Below are positions 9,064 through 27,929 of a stretch of DNA of 64,000 nucleotides, in pieces. The notes below the pieces were generated by a model. It was not told where the DNA came from, did no database searches, and saw only the letters and a list, made by a program, of their open reading frames with translations. The first letter of the stretch is position 1, and each line of letters starts with the position of its first letter. This DNA is from Candidatus Desantisbacteria bacterium CG1_02_49_89 (GTDB lineage: Bacteria > Desantisbacteria > UBA1551): positions 437-64,436 of the forward strand of contig MNUP01000033.1 in assembly GCA_001871075.1 (NCBI GenBank). The letters run 5' to 3'. The translations under genes and the position numbers were made by a program.

Positions 9064-10752
9064 CTACATCGCGGGAAGATAAACATGGAATGCCGCGCCG
9101 TCGCCAAGCGCAGATTCGGCTGAAATATGCCCGCCGTGCTTCTTGACTATGGCGAAAGCGACTGAAAGGCCCAGGCCGCTGCCTTTCGGCCTGGTAGTGA
9201 AAAACGGGTCAAATATCTTCGCGAGGTTCTCCTTCGGTATTCCTTCGCCCTGGTCTTTTACTGTTGTTTTCACGTATTTTCCGCTGCTTATTGGCAGCCC
9301 GTGCCCCTGGCCGAGTTCAACGTTCTCAGCGGTTATCCTGACTGTACCTCCTTCAGGCATTGCCTGTTCAGCGTTAATAACCAGGTTGTTTATGGCCTGG
9401 CTTATCTGTCCCTTGTCCGCGGATACGGAATACAGGTCATCCGGGATCGAGAAATCGCATTTGACGCCTGAACCGTTCAGCGCGGATACCGCTGAATCCC
9501 TTATCAGTACTGCTATGTCAATTGGTTCTGCAATCGTAGAGTCGCCTTTTGAGAAAGTAAGCAGCTGCTGGGTCAGGCCCCTTGCGCGCAGGCACGCCTT
9601 CTCAGCCGTCGATAGCGTCTCGTATGCCTCCTCCCCTGCCCGCATGTTCATTTTAGCAAGGCTGATATTCCCGACAACCACTGTCAGTATGTTGTTGAAA
9701 TTGTGCGCGATGCCGCCGGCAAGTATGCCCAGCGATTCCAGTTTCTGGGCCTTTTTAAGCTCTTCTTCCATCGTTTTCCTTTCCGTTATGTCCCTTATCA
9801 CGGCTAAGTGGCCTATGGGATTGCCGTTTTTATCCTTCAGCAGGGTAAATGACATAAGAGCGGTGAAGGTTGTCTTGTCTTTTCTGTAATGCGTTGTTTC
9901 CTCTCCCCAGCACCTTTGCAATTCATTGAAACCGCCCCTGCCTGCCGCGTTTTTTGTCTGTTCTTCTGAGTATATATCCGTGGCTTTCATCCCTATCATC
10001 TCATCAGGGGAATACCCGTGTATGCCCGCAAACGCGTTATTCACATAGGTCAGCGCGCATTCCATATCGCATATGGCTATACCGTCTATGGACTGTTCAA
10101 CCGCGGCGCTCAGCTTCCTTATTTCAGCGTCCGCTTTCTCCTGTTCGACCCGCTGAGAAGCGGATTCAAGCGCGAACGAGATATACGCGGCTAAGTTCTT
10201 TACTGACGGTACGGCCAGTTCTGCCAGGACCGGGGCAGTCATCGCGAATACGCCGCCAACACTCCCGCGGACCCAGATGGGCGTCAGGATCGTAACTTCT
10301 TTTTCGTAACCGAGTGTCACTGATATGAGCTTCGCTATCGGCCCGGGGTACAATTCATCGATTATATCGCTTACCTTTACGTGAAGCGTCTGCGCTTCCC
10401 TGACCACTTTGCCGTAGATCTTGGATTTATCCAGGGATATCTTGTATTTTGAAAGGCTATTCCCGGTCATTTTTTCAAGAAAACCCTTTTTGTCTGAGGA
10501 GCTTACCGAGGATACTGCAATTTCAAGATTGTCCCTGTCTTCAGCCAGGAGCAGAACCGAGCCTGTATATTTCCCTGACCCGGTAAACTCCTTTTCGACC
10601 GCGCCCAGCACTTCAGCCCTGTCCATTTTGCGGCACAAAGCTGTAGCCACTTTCTCAGAAAACTGTATTATGTTTATCAGCTCAGTATTCAGCTTGTCCT
10701 GATCCTGCCCCGGTCCTGCCGCCCCGCCCTTCCCTTTTTCATCGTAACTCAT
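9064..10752 (-). CDS. GAF-PAS sensor histidine kinase
   Basis: HisKA motif LESLGILAGGIAHNFNN. HATPase_c G-boxes (GEGIPKENL, GSGLGLS). PAS and GAF upstream. Confidence 0.8.
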   Translation of the reverse strand: MSYDEKGKGGAAGPGQDQDKLNTELINIIQFSEKVATALCRKMDRAEVLGAVEKEFTGSGKYTGSVLLLAEDRDNLEIAVSSVSSSDKKGFLEKMTGNSLSKYKISLDKSKIYGKVVREAQTLHVKVSDIIDELYPGPIAKLISVTLGYEKEVTILTPIWVRGSVGGVFAMTAPVLAELAVPSVKNLAAYISFALESASQRVEQEKADAEIRKLSAAVEQSIDGIAICDMECALTYVNNAFAGIHGYSPDEMIGMKATDIYSEEQTKNAAGRGGFNELQRCWGEETTHYRKDKTTFTALMSFTLLKDKNGNPIGHLAVIRDITERKTMEEELKKAQKLESLGILAGGIAHNFNNILTVVVGNISLAKMNMRAGEEAYETLSTAEKACLRARGLTQQLLTFSKGDSTIAEPIDIAVLIRDSAVSALNGSGVKCDFSIPDDLYSVSADKGQISQAINNLVINAEQAMPEGGTVRITAENVELGQGHGLPISSGKYVKTTVKDQGEGIPKENLAKIFDPFFTTRPKGSGLGLSVAFAIVKKHGGHISAESALGDGAAFHVYLPAM

Positions 10753-11914
10753 TTTTAGCCTCCTTTATCACGCTGTCCAGCACCCTGCTTAATTTCGTAA
10801 TAGTATAAGGTTTTGGGATCCCTCCGATGAAGCCGTATTCCCGGTAATGCACCATTACAGGATCGTTTGAGCCGCCGCTTGACACGATCGCCTTCGCGCC
10901 CGGGTCCGTCTTCAGGATCTCGCCGATCGCTTCTCTGCCGCCCATCCTGCCCGGCACTATAAGGTCCATTATAACAACGCCGAATTTACTGCCTGACTCC
11001 ATAGCCTGCCTGTATGTTTCCGCTGCTTCCTTCCCGTCCCTTGCGGATGTTACCTTATAGCCGATCCTTTCCAGCATCAAGGCCGCGGTATTTAATACTT
11101 CTTCCTCGTCATCCATCAGAAGGACCCTGCCCTTACCCTGCAGGATCGTTTTTTTCTGCGCGGCCGCGGTTTCCGGTTTCCCCTCTGACGCCGGAATATA
11201 TATATGGAAAGAAGCGCCCATGCCTGGCCCTGACTCAGCTGTTATGTGCCCGTTGTGCTCTTTGAAGATCTCAGACGCGATATTAAGGCCTATGCCGCTG
11301 CCTTCATGTTTGGTAGTAAAAAAAGGCTCAAAGATCCTGGACAGGTTCTCGCCGGGTATCCCTATACCGGTGTCTTTCACGGTTATTTTCACGTATTTGC
11401 CGTTTTTCAGGGGGAAAGGGTGGCCCTGCTCCAGCACCGCGTTCTCCGCGCTGACCTTTATCGTGCTCCCTTTTGTTACTGACTGCTCGGCGTTTATCAC
11501 AACGTTGTTTATGGCAAGCGTGATGCGGCCGGGATCTATTTCAGCGTCCCACAGATCTTTTGGTATTGAGAACCTGCAGCCAACGCCTGAACCGTGAAGC
11601 GCCAGCATCGCTGAGCTTTTTATCAGGCCTTCCATGGATATCGTTTCATTAACAGGAGCTCCGCGGCTTGAGAAGGCAAAAAGCCGCCTGACCAGGTCTC
11701 TTGCGCGCAGGCATGCTTTCTCCGCTCCGCCTAATACCCTGTAAGCCGCGCCTGACGCGCCAGAATCCATTTTCGCGAGTTCTATATTACCCAGTATTAT
11801 TGTCAGCGCGTTATTCAGGTCATGGGCCGTGCCCGCGGTAAATTTAATGAAGGAAACCGATTCATCCAGTTTCTCCCGCAAGCCCCGCGAATGCATTCCT
11901 TGTTTAAGTTTCAT
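10739..11914 (-). CDS. Hybrid histidine kinase (HisKA-HATPase-REC)
   Basis: AHDLNNALTII H-box. GIGIPGENL / GSGIGLN. C-terminal receiver (VLLMDDEEEV...D). It overlaps the downstream kinase by 14 nt. Confidence 0.8.
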   Translation of the reverse strand: MKLKQGMHSRGLREKLDESVSFIKFTAGTAHDLNNALTIILGNIELAKMDSGASGAAYRVLGGAEKACLRARDLVRRLFAFSSRGAPVNETISMEGLIKSSAMLALHGSGVGCRFSIPKDLWDAEIDPGRITLAINNVVINAEQSVTKGSTIKVSAENAVLEQGHPFPLKNGKYVKITVKDTGIGIPGENLSRIFEPFFTTKHEGSGIGLNIASEIFKEHNGHITAESGPGMGASFHIYIPASEGKPETAAAQKKTILQGKGRVLLMDDEEEVLNTAALMLERIGYKVTSARDGKEAAETYRQAMESGSKFGVVIMDLIVPGRMGGREAIGEILKTDPGAKAIVSSGGSNDPVMVHYREYGFIGGIPKPYTITKLSRVLDSVIKEAKNELR

Positions 11915-11939
11915 CTGTTCCTCCCCTGGCGCCTAATTT

Positions 11940-12992
11940 CTATTTTCCGTGCAGCATGTTCTTCAAAAGGCCGGGATTGCTTGACCTGGAGATCGCCTCT
12001 TCATAATCGATCAGCCCCTTTTCATGCAGTTCCTTCAAAGACTGCTCCATGGTCGTCATCCCCTGTTCCCTTCCCAGCTGGATAGCGCTGGGTATCTGGT
12101 GGGTCTTGCCCTCGCGTATCAGGTTCGCTATGGCAGCCGTAAAAAGCATTATCTCCCTTGCCGCGACCCTGCCCCCGCCTATACGGCTGAGCAGCTGCTG
12201 GGAAATGATCCCCTTAAGGGCCATTGAAAGCTGCGCCCTTATCTGCTGCTGCTGGCCGACGGGAAAAACGTCTATGATGCGGTCCACGGTCTGGGCCGCG
12301 TCGATTGTATGGAGCGTGGAAAACACAAGATGCCCTGTCTCCGCGAGAGTTATCGCGGCAACAATGGTCTCCAGATCCCTCATCTCGCCCACCAGGAGCA
12401 CGTCCGGGTCCTCGCGCAGGGCGTCCTTCATGGCGCCCGCGAAGGAACCCATGTGGACGCTGAGCCCCCGTTGATGCACTACTGCTTTTTTCTTCGGGTA
12501 TATGAACTCGATGGGGTCTTCGACCGTGATAATGTGGCATTTCTTCTCGCTGTTTATCAGGTCTATCATGGCTGCAAGGGTCGTGGATTTCCCGCTGCCC
12601 GTAGGGCCGGTCACAAGCACCAGGCCCCTGGGAAGCCTTGCAAGGTCATAAGCGATCTTCGGCATATCAAGGCTTTCCATTGACGGAATCTTCGTGGGTA
12701 TCGGCCTGAGCGCTACCGCTATGCCGCCCAGTTCCTGGAATACGTTAACACGGAACCTGCCTTCAGTGATCCCGTATGAAAAATCCAGAGAGTAGTTCTC
12801 CTCGAACATTTTTGCCTGGTTTGTGCTCATCATGCTGTAAGCCAGGTTTTTTGCGTCAGCTGTGGTGAGATCCGTTTCGTTCATGGGGATAAGCTCACCT
12901 GCCAAACGGACCATCGCGGGCATGCCCGCGCTCAAATGGATGTCTGAAACTCCCTTTCTAACGCTCTCCTTCAGAATATCGTTGATGTCCAT
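11940..12992 (-). CDS. pilT: Type IV pilus retraction ATPase PilT
   Basis: Walker A GPTGSGKSTTLAAMID. PilT family architecture. 350 aa. Confidence 0.85.
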   Translation of the reverse strand: MDINDILKESVRKGVSDIHLSAGMPAMVRLAGELIPMNETDLTTADAKNLAYSMMSTNQAKMFEENYSLDFSYGITEGRFRVNVFQELGGIAVALRPIPTKIPSMESLDMPKIAYDLARLPRGLVLVTGPTGSGKSTTLAAMIDLINSEKKCHIITVEDPIEFIYPKKKAVVHQRGLSVHMGSFAGAMKDALREDPDVLLVGEMRDLETIVAAITLAETGHLVFSTLHTIDAAQTVDRIIDVFPVGQQQQIRAQLSMALKGIISQQLLSRIGGGRVAAREIMLFTAAIANLIREGKTHQIPSAIQLGREQGMTTMEQSLKELHEKGLIDYEEAISRSSNPGLLKNMLHGK

Positions 12993-13016: not shown

Positions 13017-14153
13017 TTACTCCGATTTCTTTTCCGGATCAGGCAAAATATCTCCGTTGTCACCGCCCGGGGAGCCTGACGGTCCCTGCCGGGTGTCTTT
13101 GAATTCCTCAGCGGTCTTTCTTACTTTTTCTATCGAACCGAGAAAGACCTTAAGGATCAACGGGTCGAAATGCCTGCCTGCCTCGCTGCCCATTATTTCA
13201 ACCGCTTTTTCAATAGTGTAAGACGGTTTGTAGACCCTTCTGGAAGTAAGCGCGTCAAATACATCCGCGATGGCCGCTATCCTGCCGAAAACAGGGATGT
13301 CCTCGCCGGATATGCGCCTGGGGTAACCGGTCCCGTCGAATTTTTCGTGATGCACGAGCGCGATATCCCTTGCCGGCTCCAGGATCTCGTTGCCTGAACC
13401 CGAGAGGATCTGCGCGCCTATGAGCGGGTGCCTTTTCACTTCCTCATACTCCTCCGCGGTGAGCTTGCCCGGTTTCAGCAGAGTTGATTTGCATATCCCT
13501 ATCTTGCCTATATCGTGCAAAGGAGAAGCGTATTTTATAAGCTCCGCCTGTTTCTCGGTAAGCCCCAGGCTTCTCGCGATAATAACGCAGTAATCTCTCA
13601 TCCTCAGCAGGTGGCCGCCTACCAACCCGCTCGGGTATTCGGCGATCGCGCAGAGCTTCAGGATGGTCTCTGAGATCGCGTCCTTGTTCTCCCTGGCAAG
13701 CTTGCTGGTTTCCACATCGGAACATACCAGTTTTTTCATAAGGGATCTTTCCCATTCGATATCGCCCCTCTGCTCTCTCTGCTCAAGATGGCTGTCCACG
13801 GTCATGCGCAGCGACTGCGCGTCAAAAGGTTTCACGATATAATCACAGGCTCCGGACTTGAAGATCCTTATCGTGGAATCAAGCGCAGGAAAGCCGGTCA
13901 TCACTATAACGTCTGTTGAGGGCGAGACCGCCTTTGTTCTTTTCAGCAGTTCTTCCCCGCCCAGCCCCGGCATTTTTATATCCGTCAGCATTAAGGCAAA
14001 CTTAACCCTCTGGATGTATTCAAGCGCTTCCATCCCGCCTGACGCGGCGTAGGTGCTGATCGAAGGTTTCTCAAGGGCGCGCCTGCAGAAATTCCTTATA
14101 TCCTCCTCGTCTTCAACTATCAGTACGTTCTCGTTTTTTTTATGCCCTGCCAT
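13017..14153 (-). CDS. Response regulator with HD-GYP c-di-GMP phosphodiesterase domain
   Basis: REC (LIVEDEEDIRNF...D). HD...HHEKFDGTGYP motif. Confidence 0.85.
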   Translation of the reverse strand: MAGHKKNENVLIVEDEEDIRNFCRRALEKPSISTYAASGGMEALEYIQRVKFALMLTDIKMPGLGGEELLKRTKAVSPSTDVIVMTGFPALDSTIRIFKSGACDYIVKPFDAQSLRMTVDSHLEQREQRGDIEWERSLMKKLVCSDVETSKLARENKDAISETILKLCAIAEYPSGLVGGHLLRMRDYCVIIARSLGLTEKQAELIKYASPLHDIGKIGICKSTLLKPGKLTAEEYEEVKRHPLIGAQILSGSGNEILEPARDIALVHHEKFDGTGYPRRISGEDIPVFGRIAAIADVFDALTSRRVYKPSYTIEKAVEIMGSEAGRHFDPLILKVFLGSIEKVRKTAEEFKDTRQGPSGSPGGDNGDILPDPEKKSE

Positions 14154-14177: not shown

Positions 14178-16046
14178 TTAATTTTCACTCGGCTGAACCC
14201 TTTTATCTCCGGGTTGTCTTTTGTAATTCACAAGCACCTCGTTTATCAGTTCCCCGAAATTCATTGGTTTAAAGATAAAATCGCAGGCGCCCAGCCTGAA
14301 CGCTTCCTCGGCAAGGTCTATGTTGTCATACGCCGTCATCATAATAACAGGCGCCTCGCATCCGGCATCCTTTATCAGGCCCAGAGTTTCCACCCCGTTC
14401 ATCTCAGGCATCCTGATATCCAGCAATATAAGGTCTATCGGCAGGTTTTTTATCATCCTTAATGCTTCGCGGCCTGAATTCGCGGTTTCCGCGTCAAATC
14501 CCGCTTTATCCAGCATCTCCTTTAAAATAACCGCCACATCCGCGTCGTCGTCCACTACAAGGATCTTCATATCGATCTTTTCCTTATTATTCACAGGCGC
14601 AACCGTTTGCCCCTTATCCGTTCCGTCATTCAAAAGCCTGTTGCGGCCTGCGTAAACATTATTTCCGCCGAGTTCTTTTGCCTTGTACATAGCCTTGTCC
14701 GCCGTTGCCGCAGGGTCGCATCCTTCAATATACTGAACTGTTCCAATGCTGATGGTAACGCCGCTTGAAGGAAAGATCTGTTCCTTTACTATTACCCTCA
14801 GTTTCTCGGCCAGCGCTATCGCGCTTTTGACGTCTGATCCGGGCAGCAGAACAAGGAACTCATCCCCGCCGCGCCTGAACGCCTTATCAACGCCCGCCCT
14901 GATCTCCTCATTCAGCATTCTGCCGAACCTTTGAAGGACCCTGTCGCCTGCCTCATGCCCGTAACGGTCATTGCACTTCTTGAACCCGTCCATGTCAATA
15001 GAGAGCATCGAGAATGGCTTTCCTGTCCCGGCGCTCCCGGCTTTCTCGGATTCAAGCGAGATGAAGAACTGCCTTGAGTTATATAACCCGGTAAGATAAT
15101 CAACCCTGCTCAGCCTCTGGACCGCGTCCATCATCTTCCTCTGGCTCGTAACGTCCACCAGGACTATTTCCACAGCCGGCTCGCCCTGGAAAGAGATAAG
15201 CTTGTTATTTATGATCATGTCTATAAATGTTCCATCTTTCCTTATTAAGCTCAGGTTATACCTGGGCACTTCCGCGCCTTCAAGGGTTTCCCTTACCTTC
15301 TCCGAGAACATTTCTTTGTCTTCGCGCTTTATTATCTCCCTGATATCGAACTTTCCGGGAACCAGGTCTCCGTCTTTATATCCCAGCAGCCTTTGCACGG
15401 CCCCGTTGATGTAACTGACGGTCGACCGCCGGAGGATCGCTATAATGTTCGGTGATGTTTCCACAAGCATCCTGAATTTTTCCTCGGATTTCTTCAGATC
15501 GTCCTCTACCCCGCCTATCTTGACGCCCTCACCCCACATCATATATGAAGTGAAGCCAAGGTAGGGAAGCCCTATTGCCACAAGGAACATCATCGCGCCT
15601 TTTTCGTTCATCACGATCCAGCCGGGGATGAAATCAAAACGCTGGCCGAGGAACAGAATAAGGAAAAGAAAGGCGCTCAGGCCTGCAAGGAAAGGTATGT
15701 TCTTCCTTCCGGTGAGCCTGGTAGCGATGATGATGGGCCATATGTAGGCGATGAAAAAGGCGGTGCGGATGCTGCCCATAAGATAAAGGAACAGCGAGAC
15801 AAAAAGCACGTCCAGGACAAAAGGCACGTAATTCACCCTGTGTATGATCCTGCTTGAAGCCATATACCTGTAAACAAGGCTTTCCGCGAATTCCACTATG
15901 CCCAGCACAAGCAAAGGAAGAAGCATCTCGGCATGCATTACCAGGCGCAGTATTATAATAAGGATAAGGAAAGAACCCGTGACCGCAAGGCGCACGCGGA
16001 TGAATTTTTTCCAGGAATCAGGCGTATTCAGTGTTTCGTTCCTCAT
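14178..16046 (-). CDS. Membrane PAS-GGDEF diguanylate cyclase with C-terminal receiver
   Basis: Multi-TM N-terminus. PAS. RGGDEF motif (RRGGDEFLVLLPG). C-terminal REC (ILVVDDDADV). Confidence 0.8.
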   Translation of the reverse strand: MRNETLNTPDSWKKFIRVRLAVTGSFLILIIILRLVMHAEMLLPLLVLGIVEFAESLVYRYMASSRIIHRVNYVPFVLDVLFVSLFLYLMGSIRTAFFIAYIWPIIIATRLTGRKNIPFLAGLSAFLFLILFLGQRFDFIPGWIVMNEKGAMMFLVAIGLPYLGFTSYMMWGEGVKIGGVEDDLKKSEEKFRMLVETSPNIIAILRRSTVSYINGAVQRLLGYKDGDLVPGKFDIREIIKREDKEMFSEKVRETLEGAEVPRYNLSLIRKDGTFIDMIINNKLISFQGEPAVEIVLVDVTSQRKMMDAVQRLSRVDYLTGLYNSRQFFISLESEKAGSAGTGKPFSMLSIDMDGFKKCNDRYGHEAGDRVLQRFGRMLNEEIRAGVDKAFRRGGDEFLVLLPGSDVKSAIALAEKLRVIVKEQIFPSSGVTISIGTVQYIEGCDPAATADKAMYKAKELGGNNVYAGRNRLLNDGTDKGQTVAPVNNKEKIDMKILVVDDDADVAVILKEMLDKAGFDAETANSGREALRMIKNLPIDLILLDIRMPEMNGVETLGLIKDAGCEAPVIMMTAYDNIDLAEEAFRLGACDFIFKPMNFGELINEVLVNYKRQPGDKRVQPSEN

Positions 16047-17353: not shown

Positions 17354-17410
17354 AAAACCTCCTTAAAAATTTTGTTTTTGTCTGCGACGCAACCTTCTTG
17401 TGTAACAATA

Positions 17411-17431
17411 AAAGACAACAAACGTGCCAAC
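17411..17431 (-). promoter_or_regulatory. Candidate sigma-54 (-24/-12) promoter for the OMP/GGDEF/HD-GYP/pilT operon
   Basis: The minus strand reads TGGCACGTTTGTTGTC, i.e. TGGCAC-N5-TTGT against the consensus TGGCAC-N5-TTGC. It lies about 60 nt upstream of the 17353 start. An NtrC-family activator gene sits immediately upstream. Confidence 0.4.
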
Positions 17432-17749
17432 ATCGTCCGTTAAGGAGCGGTTTTCTGGGTATTTTAATGTTTTCCCGTCGGTAAAACAAAAATAGAAGTT
17501 TAATTTTGGTTCATGGAAGGCGGGCTGACGCAGGGCGGAAGTGAATACCGGAAATATGCGGCAATAAGCGGAAAAAACAGGGAATCAGGTATTCTGTGTA
17601 TGAAAAAAATGAATATATTTTTTGTTCACTGAATATCGGCTTTAAAATAAAAAATCCCCCTTTTCTAAAAGAGGATTTGGAGTAGGGGCTTTAGCCCCGT
17701 TTTTTACGACCGTAAAGGGTCTATTCCAAAAGAATGAGGGCTGTCAAAA

Positions 17750-17776
17750 TAAAAAACCGCCCTTATTCAGAGCGGT
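17750..17776 (-). terminator. Intrinsic terminator after the NtrC-like gene
   Basis: The minus strand reads AACCGCTCTGAATAAGGGCGGTTTTTT, a hairpin plus T-run, about 65 nt after the stop at 17841. Confidence 0.5.
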
Positions 17777-19249: not shown

Positions 19250-21133
19250 TTATTTCATTACCTTAAGGATCGCGTTGCTCAGTTCTTCCCCTGTGTATGG
19301 CTTTGCTACCACTCCCTTAAAACCGTATTTCCCGTATTCTGACATTATCGGGTCATTGGAATACCCGCTGGATGCTATTGCCCTGACTTCCGCTTCGATC
19401 TTGATCAATTCCTTGATCGCGTCCCTGCCTCCCATGCCTCCGGGTATTGTCAGGTCCATAATGACCGCGTCAAAAGGATTGCCTGATCTTTTCGCCCGGC
19501 TGTATAATTCAACGGCTTCCAGGCCGTCAGCCGCAAGTTCCGCCTCATATCCCAGACTCCTCAGGATGCAGCCGGTAGCTTGCCTGATCTGCTCTTCGTC
19601 ATCCATCAGCAGGATCCTGATCTTCCCGGCGCTATTCTTCTTAGGCGCGTAACTGCCCGGATCAACCGGCCTGTTTTCCATCGCCGGAATGTATATATAA
19701 AAAGTTGTCCCTGTCCCTTCCTTAGACTCAACCCTGATATACCCGTTGTGCTTCTTTATGATCGAATAGGCGGCGGACAGCCCCATTCCGCTTCCCTTTT
19801 CTTTTGTCGTGAAAAAAGGATCAAATATCCTGGACAGGTTTTCTTCGGGTATTCCCTTTCCGTTGTCATTCACGGATAATTTCACGTATTTTCCTTCCTT
19901 CAGCGCGATCTCCCGGCAGGTACCTGCATCCACGTTCTCCGCACTCAGGTTTATTACACCCCCTTTCGGCATTGACTGCTCAGCGTTGATAATAAGGTTG
20001 TTCATCACCTGCTGCATCTGTCCCTTATCCACCTCCGCATCCCACAGGTTGCCGGGAATGCGGAATTTGCATTTGACATTTGAACCGCTCAACGCGAAAT
20101 CCGCTGACTCTTTAATCAGCGCGGCTATTGATGCCGATTCCTTGATGGGCACGCCTGCCTTAGAAAAAGTAAGCAGCTGCTGGGTCAGGCCCTTAGCGCG
20201 CAGAGCTGCTTTCTCGATCCTGCCCAGCGCTTCAAAAGCATCTCCTTCGGGTTTGATCTCCGTTTTCATTGAAAAAACGCTGGTAATGATGACTGTCAGC
20301 ATATTGTTAAAATCGTGTGCAATGCCCCCGGTGAGTATGCCCAGTGATTCAAGTTTCTGGGCCTTCAAAATTTCCTCATTCATTTTTTTACGGTCTGTAA
20401 CATCCCGGAAAAATCCTACGTTCAGCAGCCTTCCTCCCATCCTTATGGGCCTTGACCCTATATCGGCAAAAATAACTTTCCCGTTTTTCCTTAAACAGGG
20501 CATGTCCTCGGCGATCGCGATCTCGCCTTTAACCTGTTTTTTGAACGCTTCCGTCACATGTTTCAAGCTGCCTTTGGGATGTATGTCGTTCACTCCCATA
20601 TTCACCAGTTCTTTTTCTTCATAACCCAGGAAACGGCATATTGCGGGATTGGCGAATTTTATCTTCATTGTCTCCGCGTCTGCCGCGAGTATCCCGTCCA
20701 CAGCCCCTTCAAATACCGATCTGAACTTTCCCTCGGATTCCCTGAGCTGTTCTTCCACGGCTCTGCGCTCCATAACCTGTCTTATCAGGGACAGGATCGA
20801 GTTCATGTCAACCGGCTTGGTTTCGTAACTTACTATATCCTTTTTTCTTACAGCCTCAACCGCGCTTTCTATTGAGGCATAACCCGTAATAACTATATAT
20901 TCCGTTCCCTGAGCTTGCAGGGAAAGCCTTTCGATCAGCTCAAGCCCTGTCATGTCAGGCAGTTTTATATCGACAAGAATAAGGTCAAACAATTTTTCGC
21001 CGCAAAGTTTAACCGCGGCCTGCCCGTTATCCGCGGTATCCGCCGTATAACCCTCTTCCTGCAGGATATCCCTCATATTATAAACGAAATCTTTATCGTC
21101 ATCTATGATCAGTATATTGGGCTTTTTCCTCAT
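19250..21133 (-). CDS. Hybrid sensor kinase (REC-PAS-HisKA-HATPase-REC)
   Basis: N-terminal REC. PAS. LESLGILTGGIAHDFNN. GKGIPEENL / GSGMGLS. C-terminal REC. Confidence 0.8.
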   Translation of the reverse strand: MRKKPNILIIDDDKDFVYNMRDILQEEGYTADTADNGQAAVKLCGEKLFDLILVDIKLPDMTGLELIERLSLQAQGTEYIVITGYASIESAVEAVRKKDIVSYETKPVDMNSILSLIRQVMERRAVEEQLRESEGKFRSVFEGAVDGILAADAETMKIKFANPAICRFLGYEEKELVNMGVNDIHPKGSLKHVTEAFKKQVKGEIAIAEDMPCLRKNGKVIFADIGSRPIRMGGRLLNVGFFRDVTDRKKMNEEILKAQKLESLGILTGGIAHDFNNMLTVIITSVFSMKTEIKPEGDAFEALGRIEKAALRAKGLTQQLLTFSKAGVPIKESASIAALIKESADFALSGSNVKCKFRIPGNLWDAEVDKGQMQQVMNNLIINAEQSMPKGGVINLSAENVDAGTCREIALKEGKYVKLSVNDNGKGIPEENLSRIFDPFFTTKEKGSGMGLSAAYSIIKKHNGYIRVESKEGTGTTFYIYIPAMENRPVDPGSYAPKKNSAGKIRILLMDDEEQIRQATGCILRSLGYEAELAADGLEAVELYSRAKRSGNPFDAVIMDLTIPGGMGGRDAIKELIKIEAEVRAIASSGYSNDPIMSEYGKYGFKGVVAKPYTGEELSNAILKVMK

Positions 21134-21151: not shown

Positions 21152-21919
21152 TTAATTTCTATCACGTTTCCCGAGTCCGCCCCTGGTTCTTTGCTCTCTT
21201 ATGCCGTCAAGCAAAGAAATGAGGTATTCCATATTTACCGGCTTCTCAAGACAGATATAAGCGCTTTCCTCCAGCGCCTGCTTTACAGGCCCTGACATCT
21301 CTTTCGGGTACCCGGTTACGAGGATAGCAACGATCTCTCTGCGGATATCCCTTACTGAAAGGTAGGTATACAGCCCGTTAAAGGGCGGAAGTTTCATGTC
21401 CAGGAGCAGGACATCAAAATCATTCTCTCTTGCCTTTTCCAGCGCTGTTTCGCCGTTGCAGGCCATAGTGACACTGTAACCCTTATCGCTAAGCACGTCC
21501 CTGATGTTTTTGCAGAATGCCTCGTCGTCATCAGCTACCAGCACGAGCATTCTTCCGGAAACTGCATTTTCAATGACATCAAACAGTCTGTCAAAATTCA
21601 ACGGTTTTTTCAGGAAGCCGAATGCTCCCTCCTGCAGTGTTTCCTTGATAGACCTTTCCATCTCGTAAGCCGTGATCATTATCACCGCGGTATCCGGCGA
21701 TATTTTTTTTATTTTCCTGAACGCCTCAACGCCGTTCAACAGCGGCATCTTTACATCCATCAATATAAAAGCATAGCTGTTCCTCCGCGCGGAATCAACC
21801 GCCTCTGATCCGTTATGGGCAATTTCCACCTCATAACCCTTCAATTCTATGATGTCTGCCACGTTCCTGCAGAATTCCTCGTTGTCATCCGCAACAAGAA
21901 CTTTGTTTTTTTCATCCAT
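21152..21919 (-). CDS. Tandem-receiver (REC-REC) response regulator with no output domain
   Basis: Two complete CheY-like domains (VLVADDNEEF...D and VLVADDDEAF...D). Confidence 0.75.
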   Translation of the reverse strand: MDEKNKVLVADDNEEFCRNVADIIELKGYEVEIAHNGSEAVDSARRNSYAFILMDVKMPLLNGVEAFRKIKKISPDTAVIMITAYEMERSIKETLQEGAFGFLKKPLNFDRLFDVIENAVSGRMLVLVADDDEAFCKNIRDVLSDKGYSVTMACNGETALEKARENDFDVLLLDMKLPPFNGLYTYLSVRDIRREIVAILVTGYPKEMSGPVKQALEESAYICLEKPVNMEYLISLLDGIREQRTRGGLGKRDRN

Positions 21920-23432
21920 TGCCCTTACCTCCGTTACCGGTATATTCCGGAGGTAATCGTATAAATACGGTAGTCCCCCTGCGCGGTTCAGATCTAACCT
22001 CTATCGTGCCACCGTGCCTTTCTATTATCATCTTGGAAATAGACGCGCCGAAACCTATGCCCTTTGCTTTTGTGCTGAAAAACGGCTCAAATACCCTGTT
22101 GATATCCTCAGGCGCGATGCCTGAGCCTGTATCGGTAAAGGATATTTCAATCCTTCTATCCGCAAGGCTGCGGACATCAACAGTCAGCGAGCCTTTCCAG
22201 TCCATTGCCTCCGCCGCGTTTGTTATTATATTTTTTAAAGCTATCTGCAGCTGCCCCTTATCGGCTTTGACCATTATTTTTTCAGACGGGAAGTTTCTTG
22301 CGATATTTATCGAAGGCGGTAATTTAGAAGCGTTTATTAAGCCTGACAAAAATAATGATATGTCCATCCTTTCAAAACGCGCTTCTTCGATCCTTGTCAG
22401 GTTAAGGATGCTCTGTATGATGGAAGCGGCATCTTCAGTGCTGGATTTGATCCGGTCAAGGTGCTGGCTTACCTTTTCTCCGGCGCTTTCCAATTTTGTT
22501 TTCAGGTAGAATGCTGAACTGTCTATCGTGGCAAGCGGATTTCTCAGTTCGTGCGCTATGCCGGCCGCAAACTGGCCGATAGCTACCAGCTTTTCTTTGC
22601 TCAACAGCTCTTCCTGGGCCGTCCTCAGGTCAACCGCCATCTTCTCGAACGAACGGGCCAGATCCCCGATTTCGTCCTTCTTTTTTGCCAATACCGCATC
22701 GATTTCCACGCGGGCATCGCCCTTGCCTATCTTATCCGCCATTTCGTGCAGTTTTTGTATAGGCCTGGTTATGCTCAAAGTTGAAAATATAATAATAAAA
22801 CATAAAATAAGAAATGAAAAAACAGCGGTCAGTAAAGATACTTTCAGCCTGTTCTTTTCAGCTTTGTCGGATATATTTTTCGTTTCCTCAATGCTTCTCA
22901 TGCACTCTTCGTAGATCATTGCCATGGCAAGGGATACCTTATCTTCCGCGGGGGTAACTTCGTTTCCTATCATATCAGCGGTCTTTCTAACCGCGTCCGG
23001 GTTCCAGACAGAAACAGCCATCCTTGATATTATTGCCGTATATAGAGTGTCTTCTGCCGATATTGCGTCCTTCAGATCCTTTGAAAGCTGAGTATTGAGT
23101 TTTATTTCGGACTGAGTAAACACTTCGCCCAGCTTCTGCAGTTCAGCCTGCCTTTGATCTCTCAGCAATGTGCTTTTCCGGATCAACTTTTGAAGCCCCT
23201 CTTTATCGCCTTTCTGCAGGGCTATAACCGCCTTTCTTATCAAGGCAGCAAGTTCTGTGTTAATGAACTGCAGACCGGAACTGACGCTTAACTTTTCTAT
23301 TGCGGGCATTATAATAGAATTTCTTAAATACCTGCCTTTTTTTACGGAAATAAAAGAACTCAAGGTCTGATATACGCTCAGGATAAGCAGGGGCAGGATG
23401 ATAAACAGCGCTATCCTATTTCTCAGGTTCAC
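21912..23432 (-). CDS. Membrane HAMP sensor histidine kinase
   Basis: Two TM segments. HAMP. H-box GIAHELRNPL. HATPase (GSGIAPEDI, GIGFGAS). Confidence 0.8.
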   Translation of the reverse strand: MNLRNRIALFIILPLLILSVYQTLSSFISVKKGRYLRNSIIMPAIEKLSVSSGLQFINTELAALIRKAVIALQKGDKEGLQKLIRKSTLLRDQRQAELQKLGEVFTQSEIKLNTQLSKDLKDAISAEDTLYTAIISRMAVSVWNPDAVRKTADMIGNEVTPAEDKVSLAMAMIYEECMRSIEETKNISDKAEKNRLKVSLLTAVFSFLILCFIIIFSTLSITRPIQKLHEMADKIGKGDARVEIDAVLAKKKDEIGDLARSFEKMAVDLRTAQEELLSKEKLVAIGQFAAGIAHELRNPLATIDSSAFYLKTKLESAGEKVSQHLDRIKSSTEDAASIIQSILNLTRIEEARFERMDISLFLSGLINASKLPPSINIARNFPSEKIMVKADKGQLQIALKNIITNAAEAMDWKGSLTVDVRSLADRRIEISFTDTGSGIAPEDINRVFEPFFSTKAKGIGFGASISKMIIERHGGTIEVRSEPRRGTTVFIRLPPEYTGNGGKGNG

Positions 23433-23503: not shown

Positions 23504-25606
23504 TCATCCAGGGAAAATCCTGGACGGCAGGCTTATAAGGAACTTCGCGCCTTTACCGGGCCTGCTGTGCACTTCTATCCTGCCGTTATGCGCCGTAACT
23601 ATGTTATTGATAATGAACAATCCCAGGCCCACACCATTTTTCTTCGTGGTGGAGAATGGCTGGAATAACTTGTCCTTGTCCTCGTGCCTGATCCCTTCCC
23701 CTGTGTCGCTGAATTCTACGCAGACCATCCCGTTGCTGCTGAAGGTCGAGATATTCAGCTCCCCTCCGTCAGGCATTGCTTCGCTCGCGTTCGTGATCAG
23801 GTTAATAAAGGCCTGCTCAAGCATCGCGCTGTCGCCGCTGACAGGCGGCAGGGAACGCTCGAACTGGCCTATGGTCGCAATGCCTTTCATGAATTTCTGC
23901 TTTTCTGTCAGGCTGATCGCGCTCTTCAGCACTCCGTTTATATTTATCTTACCGAATTTCAGCTCAGACGGCTTTGAAAGCCTCAGAAGATTCTCGATTA
24001 TTTTCGCGATATGCCCTGCCCCCTCATCGATCGCCTTCATATCTTCCAGGACCTCGGAGCTGAAGCCTTCTGTTTTCAGCAACAGCTGGATCCTGCCCGT
24101 GATCGCGGAAAGCGGGTTTCTTATGTCGTGCGCGATGCCTGCCGCAAGATGGCCTATGGAAGCCATCTTGTCTGACTGGACCAACTGCCTTATAAGCTCC
24201 TTCTGCGTCTGGAACAGCTCCGCATTCTCAACTGCTATCGCTATCTCATAACCCAGGGAAGACAAAATCCTGAAGTCTTCCTCGTTATACATCAGGCCTG
24301 AAGCTTTTCTGTCCAGCGTAAAAATTCCCGTAAGCCCTGCCTTGCCGATAATGGGGATACTTACGTAAGCTCCGATCGAATCAAGCAGTATCTTATTTTC
24401 CAATCTTTGTTCTGTCTTGTATAAACCGCTCCTGCTCTCGCCTTCCTCTCTTACAAGTATTTTGCCTGTTGACAGGAACTTTACTATTTCGTCCTCTTTC
24501 CTGAAAACAACGCTTCCCGCAAGCTCAGACAATAAACCCGCGCTGAACTTCATCACAAACCCATTTTTCACATTATTGAACAGTATCATGGAGCCTTTCT
24601 CGACGCCGATTATGCCTGCCAGACCCGTAACGACTTTCTCCGCAAGCTCATCCGGATCTATGGTTATGGCAAGTATCCTGCCGAAAGACTGAAGGGTTTT
24701 CTGGTAATCGTACCTGCCGGCGAAGATCAGCCTGTCAAAACCTTTTTCTATCCTTTCTTTTAAAGTAAAGATAATAAGAACAGTCAGGCCGGTTGCACCC
24801 ATCATTAAGAGCGCCGCTTCAGGCAGAGTCATAGATTCCCCGATTAACTGCCTGTATATATATATTATGGGCAAATAAATTCCTATTATAATGGTAAACA
24901 AAGCCGTGTATGAAAGCGTCTTCTTCAGCACAATGGTAATGTCCAACAGTCTATACCTGAGTATAGCATAAGTGACAATTCCTGTATAAAGAACATTAAA
25001 TAGATAGCCTATGGGATAAAAAGCTTTTCCGGCAACAGTAAATACATTTATCGTTCCTCCTATAATGCCTATCCCGATACCAAGGAGAACGTAAGCAAGC
25101 TGGTTATGTTTTACATCAAAGCTTTTCTTGTAACCGTTCCACAGAACATGAAGACTGTCATATCCAAAAAATAGCAGAAAAAAATTAAAAAAGACTCCGG
25201 CAGGGCCAATTTGCGGATACCAACCCCAGGAATGGTAATAAATATCCGAAAAGAAAAGTTTGGTAAACCAGATAAATGGAAGAAATGCGGCGCTTATCAA
25301 CAGACCGGCTATTTTGAACCTCTGCCTTGCAGCTCCTTCGCTCTCTGTTATAGAAAGAGAAAAAAGATAAGTTAAGGAAGGTATAAAAACTAATCCAGTT
25401 CCGTTTATTCTGCATGCAAGCGCTGCTATTTTGGGGTTTGAAGCTAAAAATGATAAAAATGCCCCCATATTCCAGGTAAACACAGATAAACCGCCAAAAA
25501 TAAAGGCAATGCGTGCGGCATCTTTCTTAGCCCTGAAATATACTAAAATAACCAGAAATAAATTTGTAAGGCTGGCAACCAATGGTATTAAACTGTATAC
25601 TGTCAT
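23504..25606 (-). CDS. Polytopic-membrane sensor histidine kinase (7TM-like N-terminus, GAF, HisKA, HATPase)
   Basis: About 8 N-terminal TM helices. H-box GIAHDIRNPL. GEGIRHEDKDKLF / GVGLGLF. It starts 3 nt after the KAS gene. Confidence 0.75.
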   Translation of the reverse strand: MTVYSLIPLVASLTNLFLVILVYFRAKKDAARIAFIFGGLSVFTWNMGAFLSFLASNPKIAALACRINGTGLVFIPSLTYLFSLSITESEGAARQRFKIAGLLISAAFLPFIWFTKLFFSDIYYHSWGWYPQIGPAGVFFNFFLLFFGYDSLHVLWNGYKKSFDVKHNQLAYVLLGIGIGIIGGTINVFTVAGKAFYPIGYLFNVLYTGIVTYAILRYRLLDITIVLKKTLSYTALFTIIIGIYLPIIYIYRQLIGESMTLPEAALLMMGATGLTVLIIFTLKERIEKGFDRLIFAGRYDYQKTLQSFGRILAITIDPDELAEKVVTGLAGIIGVEKGSMILFNNVKNGFVMKFSAGLLSELAGSVVFRKEDEIVKFLSTGKILVREEGESRSGLYKTEQRLENKILLDSIGAYVSIPIIGKAGLTGIFTLDRKASGLMYNEEDFRILSSLGYEIAIAVENAELFQTQKELIRQLVQSDKMASIGHLAAGIAHDIRNPLSAITGRIQLLLKTEGFSSEVLEDMKAIDEGAGHIAKIIENLLRLSKPSELKFGKININGVLKSAISLTEKQKFMKGIATIGQFERSLPPVSGDSAMLEQAFINLITNASEAMPDGGELNISTFSSNGMVCVEFSDTGEGIRHEDKDKLFQPFSTTKKNGVGLGLFIINNIVTAHNGRIEVHSRPGKGAKFLISLPSRIFPG

Positions 25607-25608: not shown

Positions 25609-26850
25609 TTACCCCTGAAATTTTCTGAAAACTAAGGCGGCATTTAATCCTGAAAAACCGCAGCCATTTTGAAGAACGGCATCCACTCTGGCGCTGCGTG
25701 CTTCATTCGGAACGCAGTCAAGGTCACAGGCAGAATCAGGATGCTCATAATTTATTGTGGGCGGTATCAGGCCGTTTTCTATGGTTAAAACCGAAGCCAC
25801 AGCCTGAATAGCCCCTGCCCCGCCGAGTGCGTGGCCTATCATTGATTTTATTGAATTAACAGGTATTCTGTATGCATTTTCACCGAAAACCTGCTTTATT
25901 GCCATAGTTTCAGCCACTTCATTCAACGGGGTTGAACTCCCATGGGCATTTATATTGTCGATCTCCCCGGGCTTTACCCCGGCGTCATCAAGCGCAAGTT
26001 TCATTGCCCTTGCCGTTTCTTTCGCATCCTCTGTAGGCGCGGTCATATGAAAAGCATTGCAGGTGGCGCCGAATCCTGCGATCTCGGCGTATATATGGGC
26101 ATTTCTCCTTAATGCATGCTCGAGTTCTTCTAAGAGAAGAATGCCGCATCCCTCTGCCAGAACAAACCCATCTCTTTCCTTGTCAAAAGGCCTGGATGCC
26201 TTTTCTGGTTCGTCATTTCTGGTTGAAACAGCATGGATCACGCAAAAAGATTGCAGGACAAAAGGAATAAGAGGGGATTCGGTGCCTCCGGCTATTGCCA
26301 TATCGGATTTTCCTAAGCGGATATCATTCAGGGCAGTGCCGACGGCAGTATGCCCTGACGTGCAGCCGGTTGAAAGAGTGGCGCTTGAACCCTTGATGCC
26401 GAATTCAATGGAAATAAAACCCAGGTGCGAACAGGGGAAAAAAGCGATCCCCATAAAGGGACTGATGCTTTTAATTCCCTTTTCATAAAAAGACATGATC
26501 TGTTTTTCAAGAAAAACAGGGCTGCCTACCGCTGAGCCGACAAAGAGGCCTATGCGTTCAGGATCTTCACGGGAAAGGTCAATACCGCTGTCCTCTACGG
26601 ACATCTTTGTAGCGGCTATGGCATACTGGCTGGAAACATCCATCCTGCGTATGTTTTTCGGATTTTTAATATATTCCCCGGGTTCAAAACCTTCCACTTC
26701 GCCTGCGATCTGAGAAGACAGTTCCGAAGCATCGAATTTCGTGATTTTGCGAATGCAGGATCTCCCCCCTGTCATTGACTTCCAGAAATCGTCTTTTCCA
26801 ATGCCGGCAGGACTAACCACTCCAATACCAGTGATTACAACGCGCCGCAT
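25609..26850 (-). CDS. Beta-ketoacyl-ACP synthase II-like condensing enzyme (FabF family)
   Basis: MRRVVITGIGVVSP N-terminus. Active-site Cys in GCTSG. His-His (NAHGSSTPLNE, SMIGHALGGAGA). Confidence 0.8.
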   Translation of the reverse strand: MRRVVITGIGVVSPAGIGKDDFWKSMTGGRSCIRKITKFDASELSSQIAGEVEGFEPGEYIKNPKNIRRMDVSSQYAIAATKMSVEDSGIDLSREDPERIGLFVGSAVGSPVFLEKQIMSFYEKGIKSISPFMGIAFFPCSHLGFISIEFGIKGSSATLSTGCTSGHTAVGTALNDIRLGKSDMAIAGGTESPLIPFVLQSFCVIHAVSTRNDEPEKASRPFDKERDGFVLAEGCGILLLEELEHALRRNAHIYAEIAGFGATCNAFHMTAPTEDAKETARAMKLALDDAGVKPGEIDNINAHGSSTPLNEVAETMAIKQVFGENAYRIPVNSIKSMIGHALGGAGAIQAVASVLTIENGLIPPTINYEHPDSACDLDCVPNEARSARVDAVLQNGCGFSGLNAALVFRKFQG

Positions 26851-26895
26851 TAGGATACCCCATAAATATTATAACACAAACAATCGAATTTTATT

Positions 26896-27489
26896 TTATG
26901 CTCCAGAAAATTTACCTGCCTTTCTGAAAAAAGGAATAAAAGCAGGAACTAATTTTTTATATTTCAGATATTCTTCTCCTATCTCTTTGCTTAATATTTT
27001 CTCCTCATAAGACATTCTCATGAGGAGCACGGGAATATAGCACAGGAACAAAAAAACGAGGGAAAGATATGAATTCGGAACCAGGCACAGACCTGTGCTT
27101 TTTATAATCATTGAAAGGTATGCGGGATGCCTTACGTAAGCATAAGGACCTTTCCTGATAATGCTGTGCCCCTGCCTGATTTCGATATCCCCGCTCCAAT
27201 ATTTCTGAAGAGTTTTAACAGCATAGCTCCTGCCCCACAAGCCAAGCAGAAACAGAGCAAGGCCTGCAAACGATACCCAGATATTGATTTTTCTTTTAAT
27301 AATAAAGTATTCGGCAACCGCCAGCATGTTCAGCGTGTAATATGTCAGCGTAATCAGCATATGCGTCCATTCAAAATAGGTTTTACCCCTATTTTGCGAA
27401 GAAGCTTTATCCACCCTTCTTTCCGCAAACAGCTGATAAAATACAGCAAACCCAAGAAAAAAGAGATAAAAAACTGTGTATATTTTCAT
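26896..27489 (-). CDS. ICMT/PEMT-family membrane methyltransferase
   Basis: Multi-TM. RKGPYAYVRHPAYL signature of the isoprenylcysteine carboxyl / phospholipid methyltransferase family. Confidence 0.7.
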   Translation of the reverse strand: MKIYTVFYLFFLGFAVFYQLFAERRVDKASSQNRGKTYFEWTHMLITLTYYTLNMLAVAEYFIIKRKINIWVSFAGLALFLLGLWGRSYAVKTLQKYWSGDIEIRQGHSIIRKGPYAYVRHPAYLSMIIKSTGLCLVPNSYLSLVFLFLCYIPVLLMRMSYEEKILSKEIGEEYLKYKKLVPAFIPFFRKAGKFSGA

Positions 27490-27929
27490 TTTTCTTTTTC
27501 TATATTCTCCTTAAGGCTTCTCAGCGTGTTTTTTGCTGATTTTGACACATAATTCCCGGCAGCATACAGTTCCAGCAGCTTCCCTATCACAGGCACCTTA
27601 AAAACCACGTTGTGCGTTATGGTAAGCTTCGTGCCCTCAGGCACCTGCTCAAAGATCCACTCGCCGGTCATGCCTTTCAAAGGCCCGTCAACCTGCTGAA
27701 ACCAAAAAAGCGAGTTTTTCTCTTCAAAAACGATGGAGCCCAGCCAGGAAAATACCTTTCCGTTAATTTCGGCTGTGCGCTCCACGAAAATATGGGTGCC
27801 GTCTCTTGCCAGGACCCTGCACTTCTTGAAATACGGGATATATTTCGGGTGGTTTGCCACATCGCTGGCAATGCGGTAAACCTCCTCCACCGGCCTGTTT
27901 ATAATTACGGAATCACTTAAATGAACCAT
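27486..27929 (-). CDS. SRPBCC (START/Bet v1-like; polyketide cyclase/dehydrase-type) protein
   Basis: 147 aa, MVHLSDSVIINRPVEEVYRIASDV...HPKYIPYFK, a typical SRPBCC fold. It overlaps the methyltransferase gene by 4 nt. Confidence 0.6.
   Translation of the reverse strand: MVHLSDSVIINRPVEEVYRIASDVANHPKYIPYFKKCRVLARDGTHIFVERTAEINGKVFSWLGSIVFEEKNSLFWFQQVDGPLKGMTGEWIFEQVPEGTKLTITHNVVFKVPVIGKLLELYAAGNYVSKSAKNTLRSLKENIEKEK

Follow-up and report, generated by a model that had tools for sequence, protein, structure and literature searches.

In Ralstonia, the PhcBSR system relies on a methyltransferase that makes 3-hydroxy fatty-acid methyl esters and on a histidine kinase that senses them; we know of no output through cyclic di-GMP (c-di-GMP) in this case. 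In the Rpf/diffusible signal factor (DSF) system of Xanthomonas, the signal is made by the products of rpfB and rpfF, RpfC is the sensor kinase, and RpfG, a REC-HD-GYP protein, engages GGDEF proteins, PilZ and PilT/PilU (PMC3749722). The srsABC, bpsAB and dquAB phenolic-lipid loci combine a type III polyketide synthase (PKS) with an ICMT-like membrane O-methyltransferase; SrsB, BpsB and DquB, encoded beside the condensing enzyme, O-methylate alkylresorcinol or alkylpyrone lipids of the membrane (PMC9827899, PMC6669644). Here, we describe a region of a 64-kb stretch of DNA from Candidatus Desantisbacteria bacterium CG1_02_49_89 (the window, meaning the whole stretch analyzed), in which genes for a putative cyclase, an SRPBCC protein, an ICMT-family methyltransferase and a FabF-type beta-ketoacyl synthase (KAS) are followed by that of a sensor kinase with a HisKA_7TM domain (7TM kinase), amid two-component and c-di-GMP genes. 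We tentatively explain positions 9064-33418, some 24 kb, as a two-layered signalling island, made up of a conserved lipid-enzyme/7TM kinase module and a set of lineage-specific signalling genes; taken as a whole, this explanation seems to us to have slightly less than an even chance of being right. Like other candidate phyla, Desantisbacteria lack cultured representatives, and to our knowledge no account of how such phyla signal has been given.

Comparison with described systems

The region resembles the Rpf/DSF system in that genes for fatty-acid-pathway enzymes adjoin those for a REC-HD-GYP protein and for a histidine kinase that crosses the membrane several times, and in that the window holds genes for a GGDEF-REC protein, a REC-HD-GYP protein and PilT, as well as a PilZ gene (54665-55111). 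It differs in that no enoyl-CoA hydratase (ECH)/crotonase domain, as in RpfF, or AMP-binding domain, as in RpfB, was found in the 20 island genes. Moreover, the window sensor is of the HisKA_7TM-GAF type without REC or Hpt, whereas RpfC combines its own input domain, a histidine kinase, REC and Hpt; and a cyclase, an SRPBCC protein and an ICMT are added, in another phylum. The signal of Rpf/DSF itself is a diffusible cis-2-unsaturated fatty acid. By this comparison, the region would be Rpf/DSF-like in its logic at best, and not a member of that system. An earlier note, made from the sequence alone, had held that the combination was not a described system, which is fair for the enzyme set, although the logic closely parallels that of Rpf/DSF (PMC3749722). 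In the literature searched, we found no description of a cyclase/SRPBCC/ICMT/KAS-7TM kinase-HD-GYP module, nor a described ligand for the HisKA_7TM sensor domain.

The PhcBSR system is alike in that a methylated, fatty-acid-derived signal is encoded beside its sensor kinase, but its methyltransferase, PhcB, is of the soluble class I kind and not of the ICMT type, and the kinase belongs to another family. The region shares with the srs, bps and dqu loci a condensing enzyme gene adjoining that of an ICMT-family membrane methyltransferase, the known products of those loci being hydrophobic and membrane-resident. However, the window enzyme is a FabF-type KAS with a Cys-His-His triad, no type III PKS domain was found, SRPBCC and PF04199 proteins are added, and the known loci have no sensor kinase linked to them. 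In type II PKS systems (TcmN, BexL, WhiE), too, a methyltransferase and a cyclase/dehydrase-like SRPBCC protein accompany a ketosynthase (KS) from the FabF/KS-alpha superfamily, but the window cassette lacks a chain-length factor and an acyl carrier protein (ACP), and its KAS is closer to FabF of fatty acid synthesis (FAS).

Conservation of the enzyme genes and their sensor kinase

The ICMT protein was used as the search anchor, and an indexed search of 5.8 billion proteins returned only 7 homologues at E ≤ 1e-10. All related loci, four metagenomic or metagenome-assembled genome (MAG) loci, were recovered through this one anchor, and each of the four homologue loci with long enough contigs (L027, L029, L030 and L031) shared the neighbourhood. 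An SRPBCC gene was found beside the ICMT gene in 4/4 judgeable loci, the cyclase gene lay upstream in 3/3 loci reaching that far, and a FabF-type KAS gene lay downstream in 3/3. The HisKA_7TM kinase gene began within 3 nt of the KAS stop codon or overlapped it in 2/2 loci, and an HD-GYP gene adjoined in both of them.

The gene order in L027, with identities to the window proteins, was REC-HTH_17 regulator (61%), cyclase (74%), SRPBCC (70%), ICMT (54%), class I methyltransferase, second ICMT, KAS (68%), HisKA_7TM-GAF kinase (46%) and HD-GYP. L030, labelled Elusimicrobiota, showed the order cyclase (51%), SRPBCC (35%), ICMT (39%), B12-radical SAM enzyme, second ICMT, KAS (56%), 7TM kinase (25%) and REC-HD-GYP, the last gene being convergent. 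In the partial locus L029 the order was SRPBCC, ICMT, second ICMT and KAS (67%), and in L031 it was cyclase (51%), HTH gene, SRPBCC, FadL-like channel and ICMT. The accessory genes of these relatives (second ICMT, class I methyltransferase, B12-radical SAM enzyme, FadL-like porin) are all of a type that acts on lipids or hydrophobic substrates.

The HisKA_7TM-GAF-HisKA-HATPase sensor kinase of the window (23504-25606, minus strand; Pfam) starts 2 nt past the KAS stop codon; in L027 this distance is +3 nt, and in L030 the two genes overlap by 4 nt. Orthologues of this kinase abutted the KAS gene in L027 (5388-7532; 46% identity over the full length) and in L030 (13735-16305; 856 aa, 25%). The 7TM domain, PF16927, scored 41.2 bits in the window, 45.3 in L027 and 20.7 in L030, against a gathering score of 28.6; the L030 domain thus fell below this score, yet could be aligned over its full length, and the 7TM part has invariant residues. 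The transmitter was of the AAGIAH(D/E)IRNP-type HisKA, without REC, in the window and L027, and of the GGIAHDFNN-type HisKA with a REC domain in L030, which amounts to domain shuffling behind a constant 7TM sensor. The 7TM sensor is kept in L030 with a different transmitter, and therefore the conserved partner of the enzymes would be the sensor itself.

The conserved unit thus comprises the cyclase, SRPBCC, ICMT(s), KAS, 7TM kinase and HD-GYP genes, and not a 15-gene block. The earlier note had joined an enzyme trio to the 7TM kinase and had asked whether the order was conserved elsewhere. Its grouping agrees with the order in the other loci, but the unit was wrongly bounded, because the PF04199 cyclase and the upstream REC-HTH_17 regulators had been missed; and while the part from the cyclase to the 7TM kinase and HD-GYP recurs, the rest of the proposed order was not found elsewhere.

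Enzymes of the cassette

The first enzyme of the conserved cassette is a PF04199 putative cyclase or metal-dependent hydrolase (28161-29000, minus; Pfam, 125 bits), which carries the HxGTHxDxPxH motif; among solved structures, isatin hydrolases and further metal-dependent hydrolases come nearest to it. The next gene encodes an SRPBCC protein of the polyketide cyclase/dehydrase type (27486-27929, minus; PF03364 and PF10604). Its closest solved relatives by sequence are TTHA0849 and the aromatase/cyclases (ARO/CYC) BexL and TcmN, the latter two at E values of 1e-9 to 1e-6. This gene overlaps by 4 nt that of an ICMT/PEMT-family integral-membrane methyltransferase (26896-27489, minus; PF04140 and PF04191), for which the best solved match is the archaeal Ma-ICMT, 4a2n, and which lies 45 nt upstream of the KAS gene.

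The FabF-type KAS (25609-26850, minus; PF00109 and PF02801) matched TIGR03150 with 513 bits, marginally above the cutoff of 493.75. Alignment to 1j3n showed an intact Cys-His-His triad, with Cys163 in STGCTSG, HGSSTP and GHALG, and FAS FabF was a better match (E value of 6e-120) than the KS for actinorhodin (1e-102). No genes of a fab-operon context (acpP, fabG, fabD) were present among the annotated open reading frames (ORFs) of the window, and the neighbours of the KAS gene were ICMT and kinase genes in the window, L027, L029 and L030. The cassettes of the window, L027 and L030 each hold a single KS gene, and none of their other ORFs is KS-like or PP-binding. Judging from these families, the cassette most likely builds or modifies a small, hydrophobic, acyl-derived and O-methylated compound that resides in or crosses the membrane.

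Upstream edge of the island

Upstream of the cyclase gene lie a hybrid kinase and two response regulators. The MEDS-PAS-HisKA-HATPase-REC hybrid kinase (29456-31597, minus; Pfam), whose H-box reads LEMLGIFAGGIAHDFNN, is 38-46% identical to, and thus a paralogue of, three cluster kinases described below (HyHK, HK-REC and PAS-HK). REC-HTH_17 response regulator (a) (31600-32118, minus; Pfam) shares 61% identity with the L027 regulator, whose gene overlaps the cyclase gene in that locus. REC-HTH_17 response regulator (b) (32317-32868, minus; Pfam) has its phospho-acceptor Asp and is 56% identical to the same regulator heading the L027 module. Divergent from the latter gene is the only plus-strand gene of the window, which encodes a 150-aa cNMP-binding protein (32966-33418; PF00027, 72 bits). 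It marks the upstream edge of the island and adds a cyclic-nucleotide receptor to it. Its other neighbour (33415-36054, minus) directly adjoins it and encodes an 879-aa HEAT-repeat protein, of a size uncommon for such proteins in bacteria.

Direct repeats of (A/G)AATCCGTGG were found at 29215-29291 (minus), where they precede the start codon of the cyclase gene by about 215-290 nt. Three copies of the same repeat, here (A/G)AAT(C/T)CGTG(G/A), follow one another with 10-nt spacing at 28034-28067 (minus) and precede the start codon of the SRPBCC gene by 105-138 nt. Within the 64 kb, the (A/G)AATCCGTGG repeats with their 10-nt period are confined to the two intergenic regions flanking the cyclase gene, and the exact 12-mer GAAAATCCGTGG occurs only in 29215-29291 and at 28056-28067. 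These repeats are a candidate shared operator, which the REC-HTH_17 regulators might recognize; L027, L030 and L031 showed no motif equivalent to them.

Gene layout of the island

The fifteen consecutive minus-strand genes reported in the earlier note were found as ORFs at exactly the coordinates given, 9064-27929, although spacing within this block ranged from -14 to +71 nt instead of the 0-46 nt first reported. The single orientation is not distinctive: all credible genes of the window lie on the minus strand, with the sole exception of 32966-33418, and fifteen same-strand genes in a row are uninformative because nearly the whole 64 kb is minus-strand. By content, on the other hand, the island stands apart, with signalling genes accounting for 13 of its 20 genes versus 1 (the PilZ protein) among about 30 other annotated genes of the window. 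That stand-alone PilZ-domain protein (minus strand) is encoded amid tRNA genes some 27 kb from the cluster and is a potential c-di-GMP receptor.

Domains were called with Pfam and NCBIfam, applying equivalog and gathering cutoffs, and nearly all of the domains first proposed were upheld; a GAF domain was not detectable in gene 15, the GAF domain being located in the 7TM kinase instead. Catalytic motifs were intact in all genes checked, and the phospho-acceptor Asp was present in all 11 REC domains. A horizontal-transfer origin of the island was considered and set aside, as GC content and skew were without a clear break.

From the HAMP kinase to the NtrC-type activator

Separated from the 7TM kinase gene by 71 nt, a GTG-initiated gene (21912-23432, minus) encodes a HAMP-HisKA-HATPase kinase (Pfam), with about 200 aa without domain match before the HAMP domain. 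It is followed by a REC-REC protein (21152-21919, minus; two REC stretches by Pfam, both Asp present) and by a REC-PAS-HisKA-HATPase-REC hybrid kinase, HyHK (19250-21133, minus; Pfam), with the H-box LESLGILTGGIAHDFNN. The earlier note had described an H-box, LESLGIL..GGIAH(D/N)FNN, as common to the kinase paralogues. This motif was present in only 2/5 cluster kinases and in the MEDS kinase outside the 15-gene interval, whereas the 7TM and HAMP kinases bear a different one, AAGIAH(D/E)(I/L)RNP. Overall, four kinases were paralogues, with 38-55% identity.

The last gene before the only large gap of the block encodes an NtrC-type sigma-54 enhancer-binding protein (17841-19241, minus), composed of REC (PF00072), AAA+ (PF00158, 235 bits) and a divergent Fis-type HTH. 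The GSFTGA and GESGTGK (Walker A) motifs are present. HTH_8 scored only 18 bits against a cutoff of 22, the Fis-type pattern being readable. The protein thus resembles the activator of NtrB/NtrC in its REC domain, AAA+ domain with a GAFTGA-type loop and HTH, and in lying upstream of a -24/-12-like element, but it falls below every NCBIfam equivalog cutoff, making it an orthologue of no named activator, and the promoter match is imperfect. As a synteny anchor the activator was rejected: among 4036 homologues, the nearest (63% and 57% identical) showed no synteny, adjoining KaiB, hydrogenase or Cache-kinase genes.

The gap itself spans 487 nt (17354-17840). Directly past the activator gene, it contains a strong intrinsic terminator with a 9-bp stem and T-run (17745-17777, minus), then a second hairpin with a T-run (17652-17678, minus). 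An inverted repeat, GAATACC/GGTATTC, surrounds CGG repeats phased at 10 nt (17543-17594, minus), 115-180 nt upstream of a sigma-54-like -24/-12 element, TGGCACGTTTGTTGT (TGGCAC-N5-TTGT; 17415-17429, minus), which in turn lies 62 nt upstream of the start codon of the first barrel gene. The inverted and phased repeats could, speculatively, be a candidate activator-binding site; short tandem repeats are common in the intergenic DNA of the window, which weakens this reading.

In sigma-54 promoters (TGGCAC-N5-TTGC), the GG at -24 and the GC at -12 are near-invariant. The element TGGCACGTTTGTTGT has the GG at -24, and GT replaces GC at -12. The backing for it is position and strand only: no other intergenic promoter position of the coding strand holds such a site, and, by our own estimate, the chance of a one-mismatch site in the 487-nt gap on that strand is about 0.015. 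The earlier claim of an internal break with a terminator and a sigma-54-like promoter therefore holds for the terminator, to which a second hairpin is added, but the promoter is a one-mismatch site within the count expected by chance. An Rfam search of the gap for a riboswitch or small RNA returned nothing at E ≤ 1 beyond one chance-level match.

Barrel proteins, c-di-GMP enzymes, PilT and the last kinases

Downstream of the gap, two paralogous proteins were predicted to be outer-membrane beta-barrels, as first proposed: OMP-A (16706-17353, minus), in which a helical segment separates strands 5 and 6, and OMP-B (16043-16663, minus), 50% identical to it. The OMP-B start was revised, being most likely at 16663, where an AGGAGG Shine-Dalgarno sequence is found, and not at 16699; gene callers also give 206 aa. 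Both proteins have a signal peptide and are predicted to fold into a transmembrane barrel of 8 antiparallel strands. The chain then runs on for about 10-20 residues, where barrels usually end on an aromatic residue. The fold fits small 8-stranded barrels of the OmpA-N, OmpW, NspA and OprH type, but by sequence the pair belongs to none of them, with no Pfam or NCBIfam match and no curated outer-membrane protein family. The window encodes LptE and an LpxB-like protein (lipopolysaccharide [LPS] genes), indicating that the cell is diderm, and outer-membrane barrels are therefore plausible. A 413-aa ORF (43794-45035), examined as a possible second FabF, was ruled out as LpxB-like.

The barrel family is rare: an exhaustive profile search of 1.84 billion proteins gave 8 representatives, and the indexed search gave the two paralogues only. 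It was not retained as a synteny anchor, its contexts being unrelated (CsgG, YceG, T2SSF and phosphodiesterase genes). Distant members also occur as tandem paralogues elsewhere (L013, 2903-7217; L014, 9474-10528), and one neighbour of such members showed a faint DUF3996 match.

The barrel genes are followed by those of a membrane-PAS-GGDEF-REC diguanylate cyclase (14178-16046, minus), with an N-terminal membrane region, an intact GGDEF motif and no I-site; a REC-HD-GYP c-di-GMP phosphodiesterase (13017-14153, minus; REC and HD_5), with HD, HHE and GYP motifs; and a PilT-family retraction ATPase (11940-12992, minus; TIGR01420, 453 bits versus a cutoff of 319). These three genes adjoin, with 24-nt gaps. 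PilT shows Walker A (GPTGSGKS) and B motifs, Asp and His boxes, and AIANLIREGK, which has one substitution compared with AIRNLIRE. Two kinases complete the block: a HisKA-HATPase-REC kinase without input domain, HK-REC (10739-11914, minus), and a PAS-HisKA-HATPase kinase, PAS-HK (gene 15; 9064-10752, minus), whose 210-aa N-terminus has no domain match and whose gene overlaps that of HK-REC by 14 nt. A hairpin with a T-run, read from the sequence, closes the cluster (8995-9030, minus), with a sigma-70 promoter and tRNA genes next.

Proposed explanation and alternatives

In the explanation that we tentatively favour, the first layer, at about 23.5-29 kb and probably headed by the REC-HTH_17 regulators, would couple lipid chemistry to c-di-GMP. 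The cyclase/hydrolase, the ARO/CYC-like SRPBCC protein, the ICMT-type methyltransferase and the FabF-type KAS would yield a methylated, hydrophobic, acyl-derived compound. The HisKA_7TM-GAF kinase, translationally coupled to the KAS, would most likely sense either this compound or the resulting state of the membrane, and most likely pass phosphate to REC proteins, above all the HD-GYP c-di-GMP phosphodiesterase. Overall, a lipid cue would act on c-di-GMP by a logic like that of Rpf/DSF. The second layer (HAMP kinase, REC-REC protein, three paralogous hybrid or soluble kinases, NtrC-type activator, barrels, GGDEF-REC and PilT), which appears so far only in this lineage, is probably wired into the same network, and the activator may drive the barrel pair, the diguanylate cyclase, HD-GYP, PilT and the two last kinases from the sigma-54-like site. 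The gene content, domains, catalytic motifs, spacing and conservation of the first layer are observed; we infer the product, what the sensor detects, each phosphotransfer partner and the link between activator and promoter. In favour of the explanation are the recurring gene order with its tight KAS-kinase junction, the sensor kept in L030, the HD-GYP genes beside the kinase, the accessory genes of the relatives, the precedents of SrsB, BpsB and DquB and of Rpf/DSF, the repeats before the cyclase and SRPBCC genes, the terminator and -24/-12-like site, and the concentration of signalling genes.

Several observations weigh against this explanation. The related loci are only four, found with one search anchor, and conservation of the remainder (HAMP kinase, REC-REC protein, hybrid kinase, NtrC-type activator, barrels, GGDEF, PilT and last two kinases) was not found; in particular, none of the second-layer genes lay downstream of the module in L030. 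Contig scans with the 7TM kinase, over GTDB species-representative genomes and JGI metagenome contigs, gave no orthologues and only generic kinase cores (27-32% identity); the source contigs themselves were not returned, and these scans say nothing about conservation. No chemistry is known for the cassette, which holds no gene for an ACP, chain-length factor, thioesterase or acyl-activating enzyme. The KAS exceeds the NCBI fabF equivalog cutoff and could be simply a housekeeping enzyme; the idea of a PKS-like active-site segment was dropped, the best matches being FAS FabF. No Hpt domain was found in the island genes with Pfam or NCBIfam, and rpoN was not seen in the window. Lastly, the -12 mismatch of TGGCACGTTTGTTGT, the number of one-mismatch sigma-54 sites (2 found versus about 3.9 expected by chance per window) and the window-wide same-strand packing all point in the same direction.

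A first alternative would be a membrane-lipid homeostasis system, in which the cassette makes a structural lipid such as the methylated phenolic or pyrone lipids of srs/bps, the 7TM kinase monitors the bilayer and acts through the REC-HTH_17 regulators, and the c-di-GMP genes are mere neighbours. Pairs of an ICMT-like methyltransferase and a condensing enzyme are tied to membrane-modifying lipids (PMC9827899), REC-HTH_17 heads the L027 operon and lies upstream in the window, common repeats precede the cyclase and SRPBCC genes, and the organism is diderm with LPS genes. However, an HD-GYP gene is again found beside the kinase in two independent loci, the FadL-type channel of L031 suggests that the compound crosses the outer membrane, and the GAF domain of the kinase suggests binding of a small molecule. 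We consider homeostasis unlikely, if still credible. Rather unlikely, in our judgement, is a chance or loosely functional juxtaposition, whereby one-strand packing, local duplication of two-component genes and a housekeeping FabF would have left no single 19-kb system. The minus-strand orientation of all but one gene, the four paralogous kinases, the KAS score above the fabF cutoff, the unrelated contexts of the NtrC and barrel homologues and a sigma-54-like site within chance expectation are all consistent with it, but it would not account for an enzyme order that recurs, with the 7TM kinase at overlap or near-overlap distance, in loci down to 25-56% identity, nor for signalling genes being so much more frequent within the island than outside it.

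The earlier note had read the block as one linear circuit, in which a cue from the enzyme trio travels through five kinases to the NtrC activator, and a sigma-54 operon then sets c-di-GMP, pilus retraction and the barrels. Gene order and short gaps, the complete REC-AAA+(GSFTGA)-HTH activator, a terminator followed by TGGCAC-N5-TTGT in the sole long gap, and the phased and inverted repeats 115-180 nt upstream, which could be an activator site, agree with this reading. However, a multi-kinase phosphorelay is difficult to reconcile with an island in which no Hpt domain was found, the promoter motif has its mismatch where sigma-54 promoters hardly vary, such sites are no more frequent than expected, no related locus has the gene arrangement seen past the 7TM kinase, and no pilus genes apart from PilT were present among the annotated ORFs of the 64-kb window. 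What ties the circuit together, from phosphorelay to activator, sigma-54 operon, barrels, c-di-GMP enzymes and PilT, is adjacency and a one-mismatch motif; we give it little credence, and regard a 15-gene circuit ending in a sigma-54 operon as conjecture for this one lineage.

Within the two-layer explanation, a bolder version would be an undescribed autoinducer-type system in Desantisbacteria, Elusimicrobiota and relatives, in which a methylated polyketide or fatty-acid lipid is detected within the membrane by the 7TM domain, leading to c-di-GMP degradation and a change in surface behaviour. We rate the prospects of this version as low. If it were true, it would represent a new chemical class of bacterial lipid signal and a new type of receptor, and the lipid-type signals (DSF, fatty-acid methyl esters, dialkylresorcinols) would gain a new enzyme set and receptor family. 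The conserved cassette and its operon-level partners, a 7TM kinase and an HD-GYP enzyme, offer a concrete proposal, open to cloning, of a lipid cue together with a receptor. If it were wrong, the region would still be a clear case of two-component and c-di-GMP genes accreting around a conserved core.

Other features of the window

The source is an uncultured groundwater bacterium from Crystal Geyser-type groundwater MAGs, and the contig was found again in several metagenomes. A 514-aa ORF without Pfam match (60983-62527, minus) lies between two fumarase subunit genes. Right after the cluster terminator, a perfect extended sigma-70 consensus, TTGACA-16-TG-TATAAT (8939-8966, minus), is located about 470 nt upstream of tRNA-Phe and tRNA-Val genes. 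An incomplete tRNA-Phe copy (8480-8625, minus), which neither ARAGORN nor Rfam called, lies directly upstream of the intact tRNA-Phe (8394-8470). It comprises the 5' acceptor with the D-arm (8603-8622), an insert and then the anticodon arm (about 8503-8520), but no T-arm. Integration at the 3' end of a tRNA was considered and rejected, since in a classical event of this kind the partial copy would lie on the other side of the tRNA.

Tandem repeats with units of 7-10 nt in 3-5 copies were observed in intergenic regions across the window, for example at 17816-17846, 27998-28028, 28139-28162, 29015-29047, 45040-45076, 59413-59443 and 60263-60300. Units recurring between intergenic regions included AATTATG, ATTCATA and ACTTGAC, and the unit CTCTATTG/TCTATTGC adjoined tRNA genes at 7910, 38666, 53529, 53974 and 57765.

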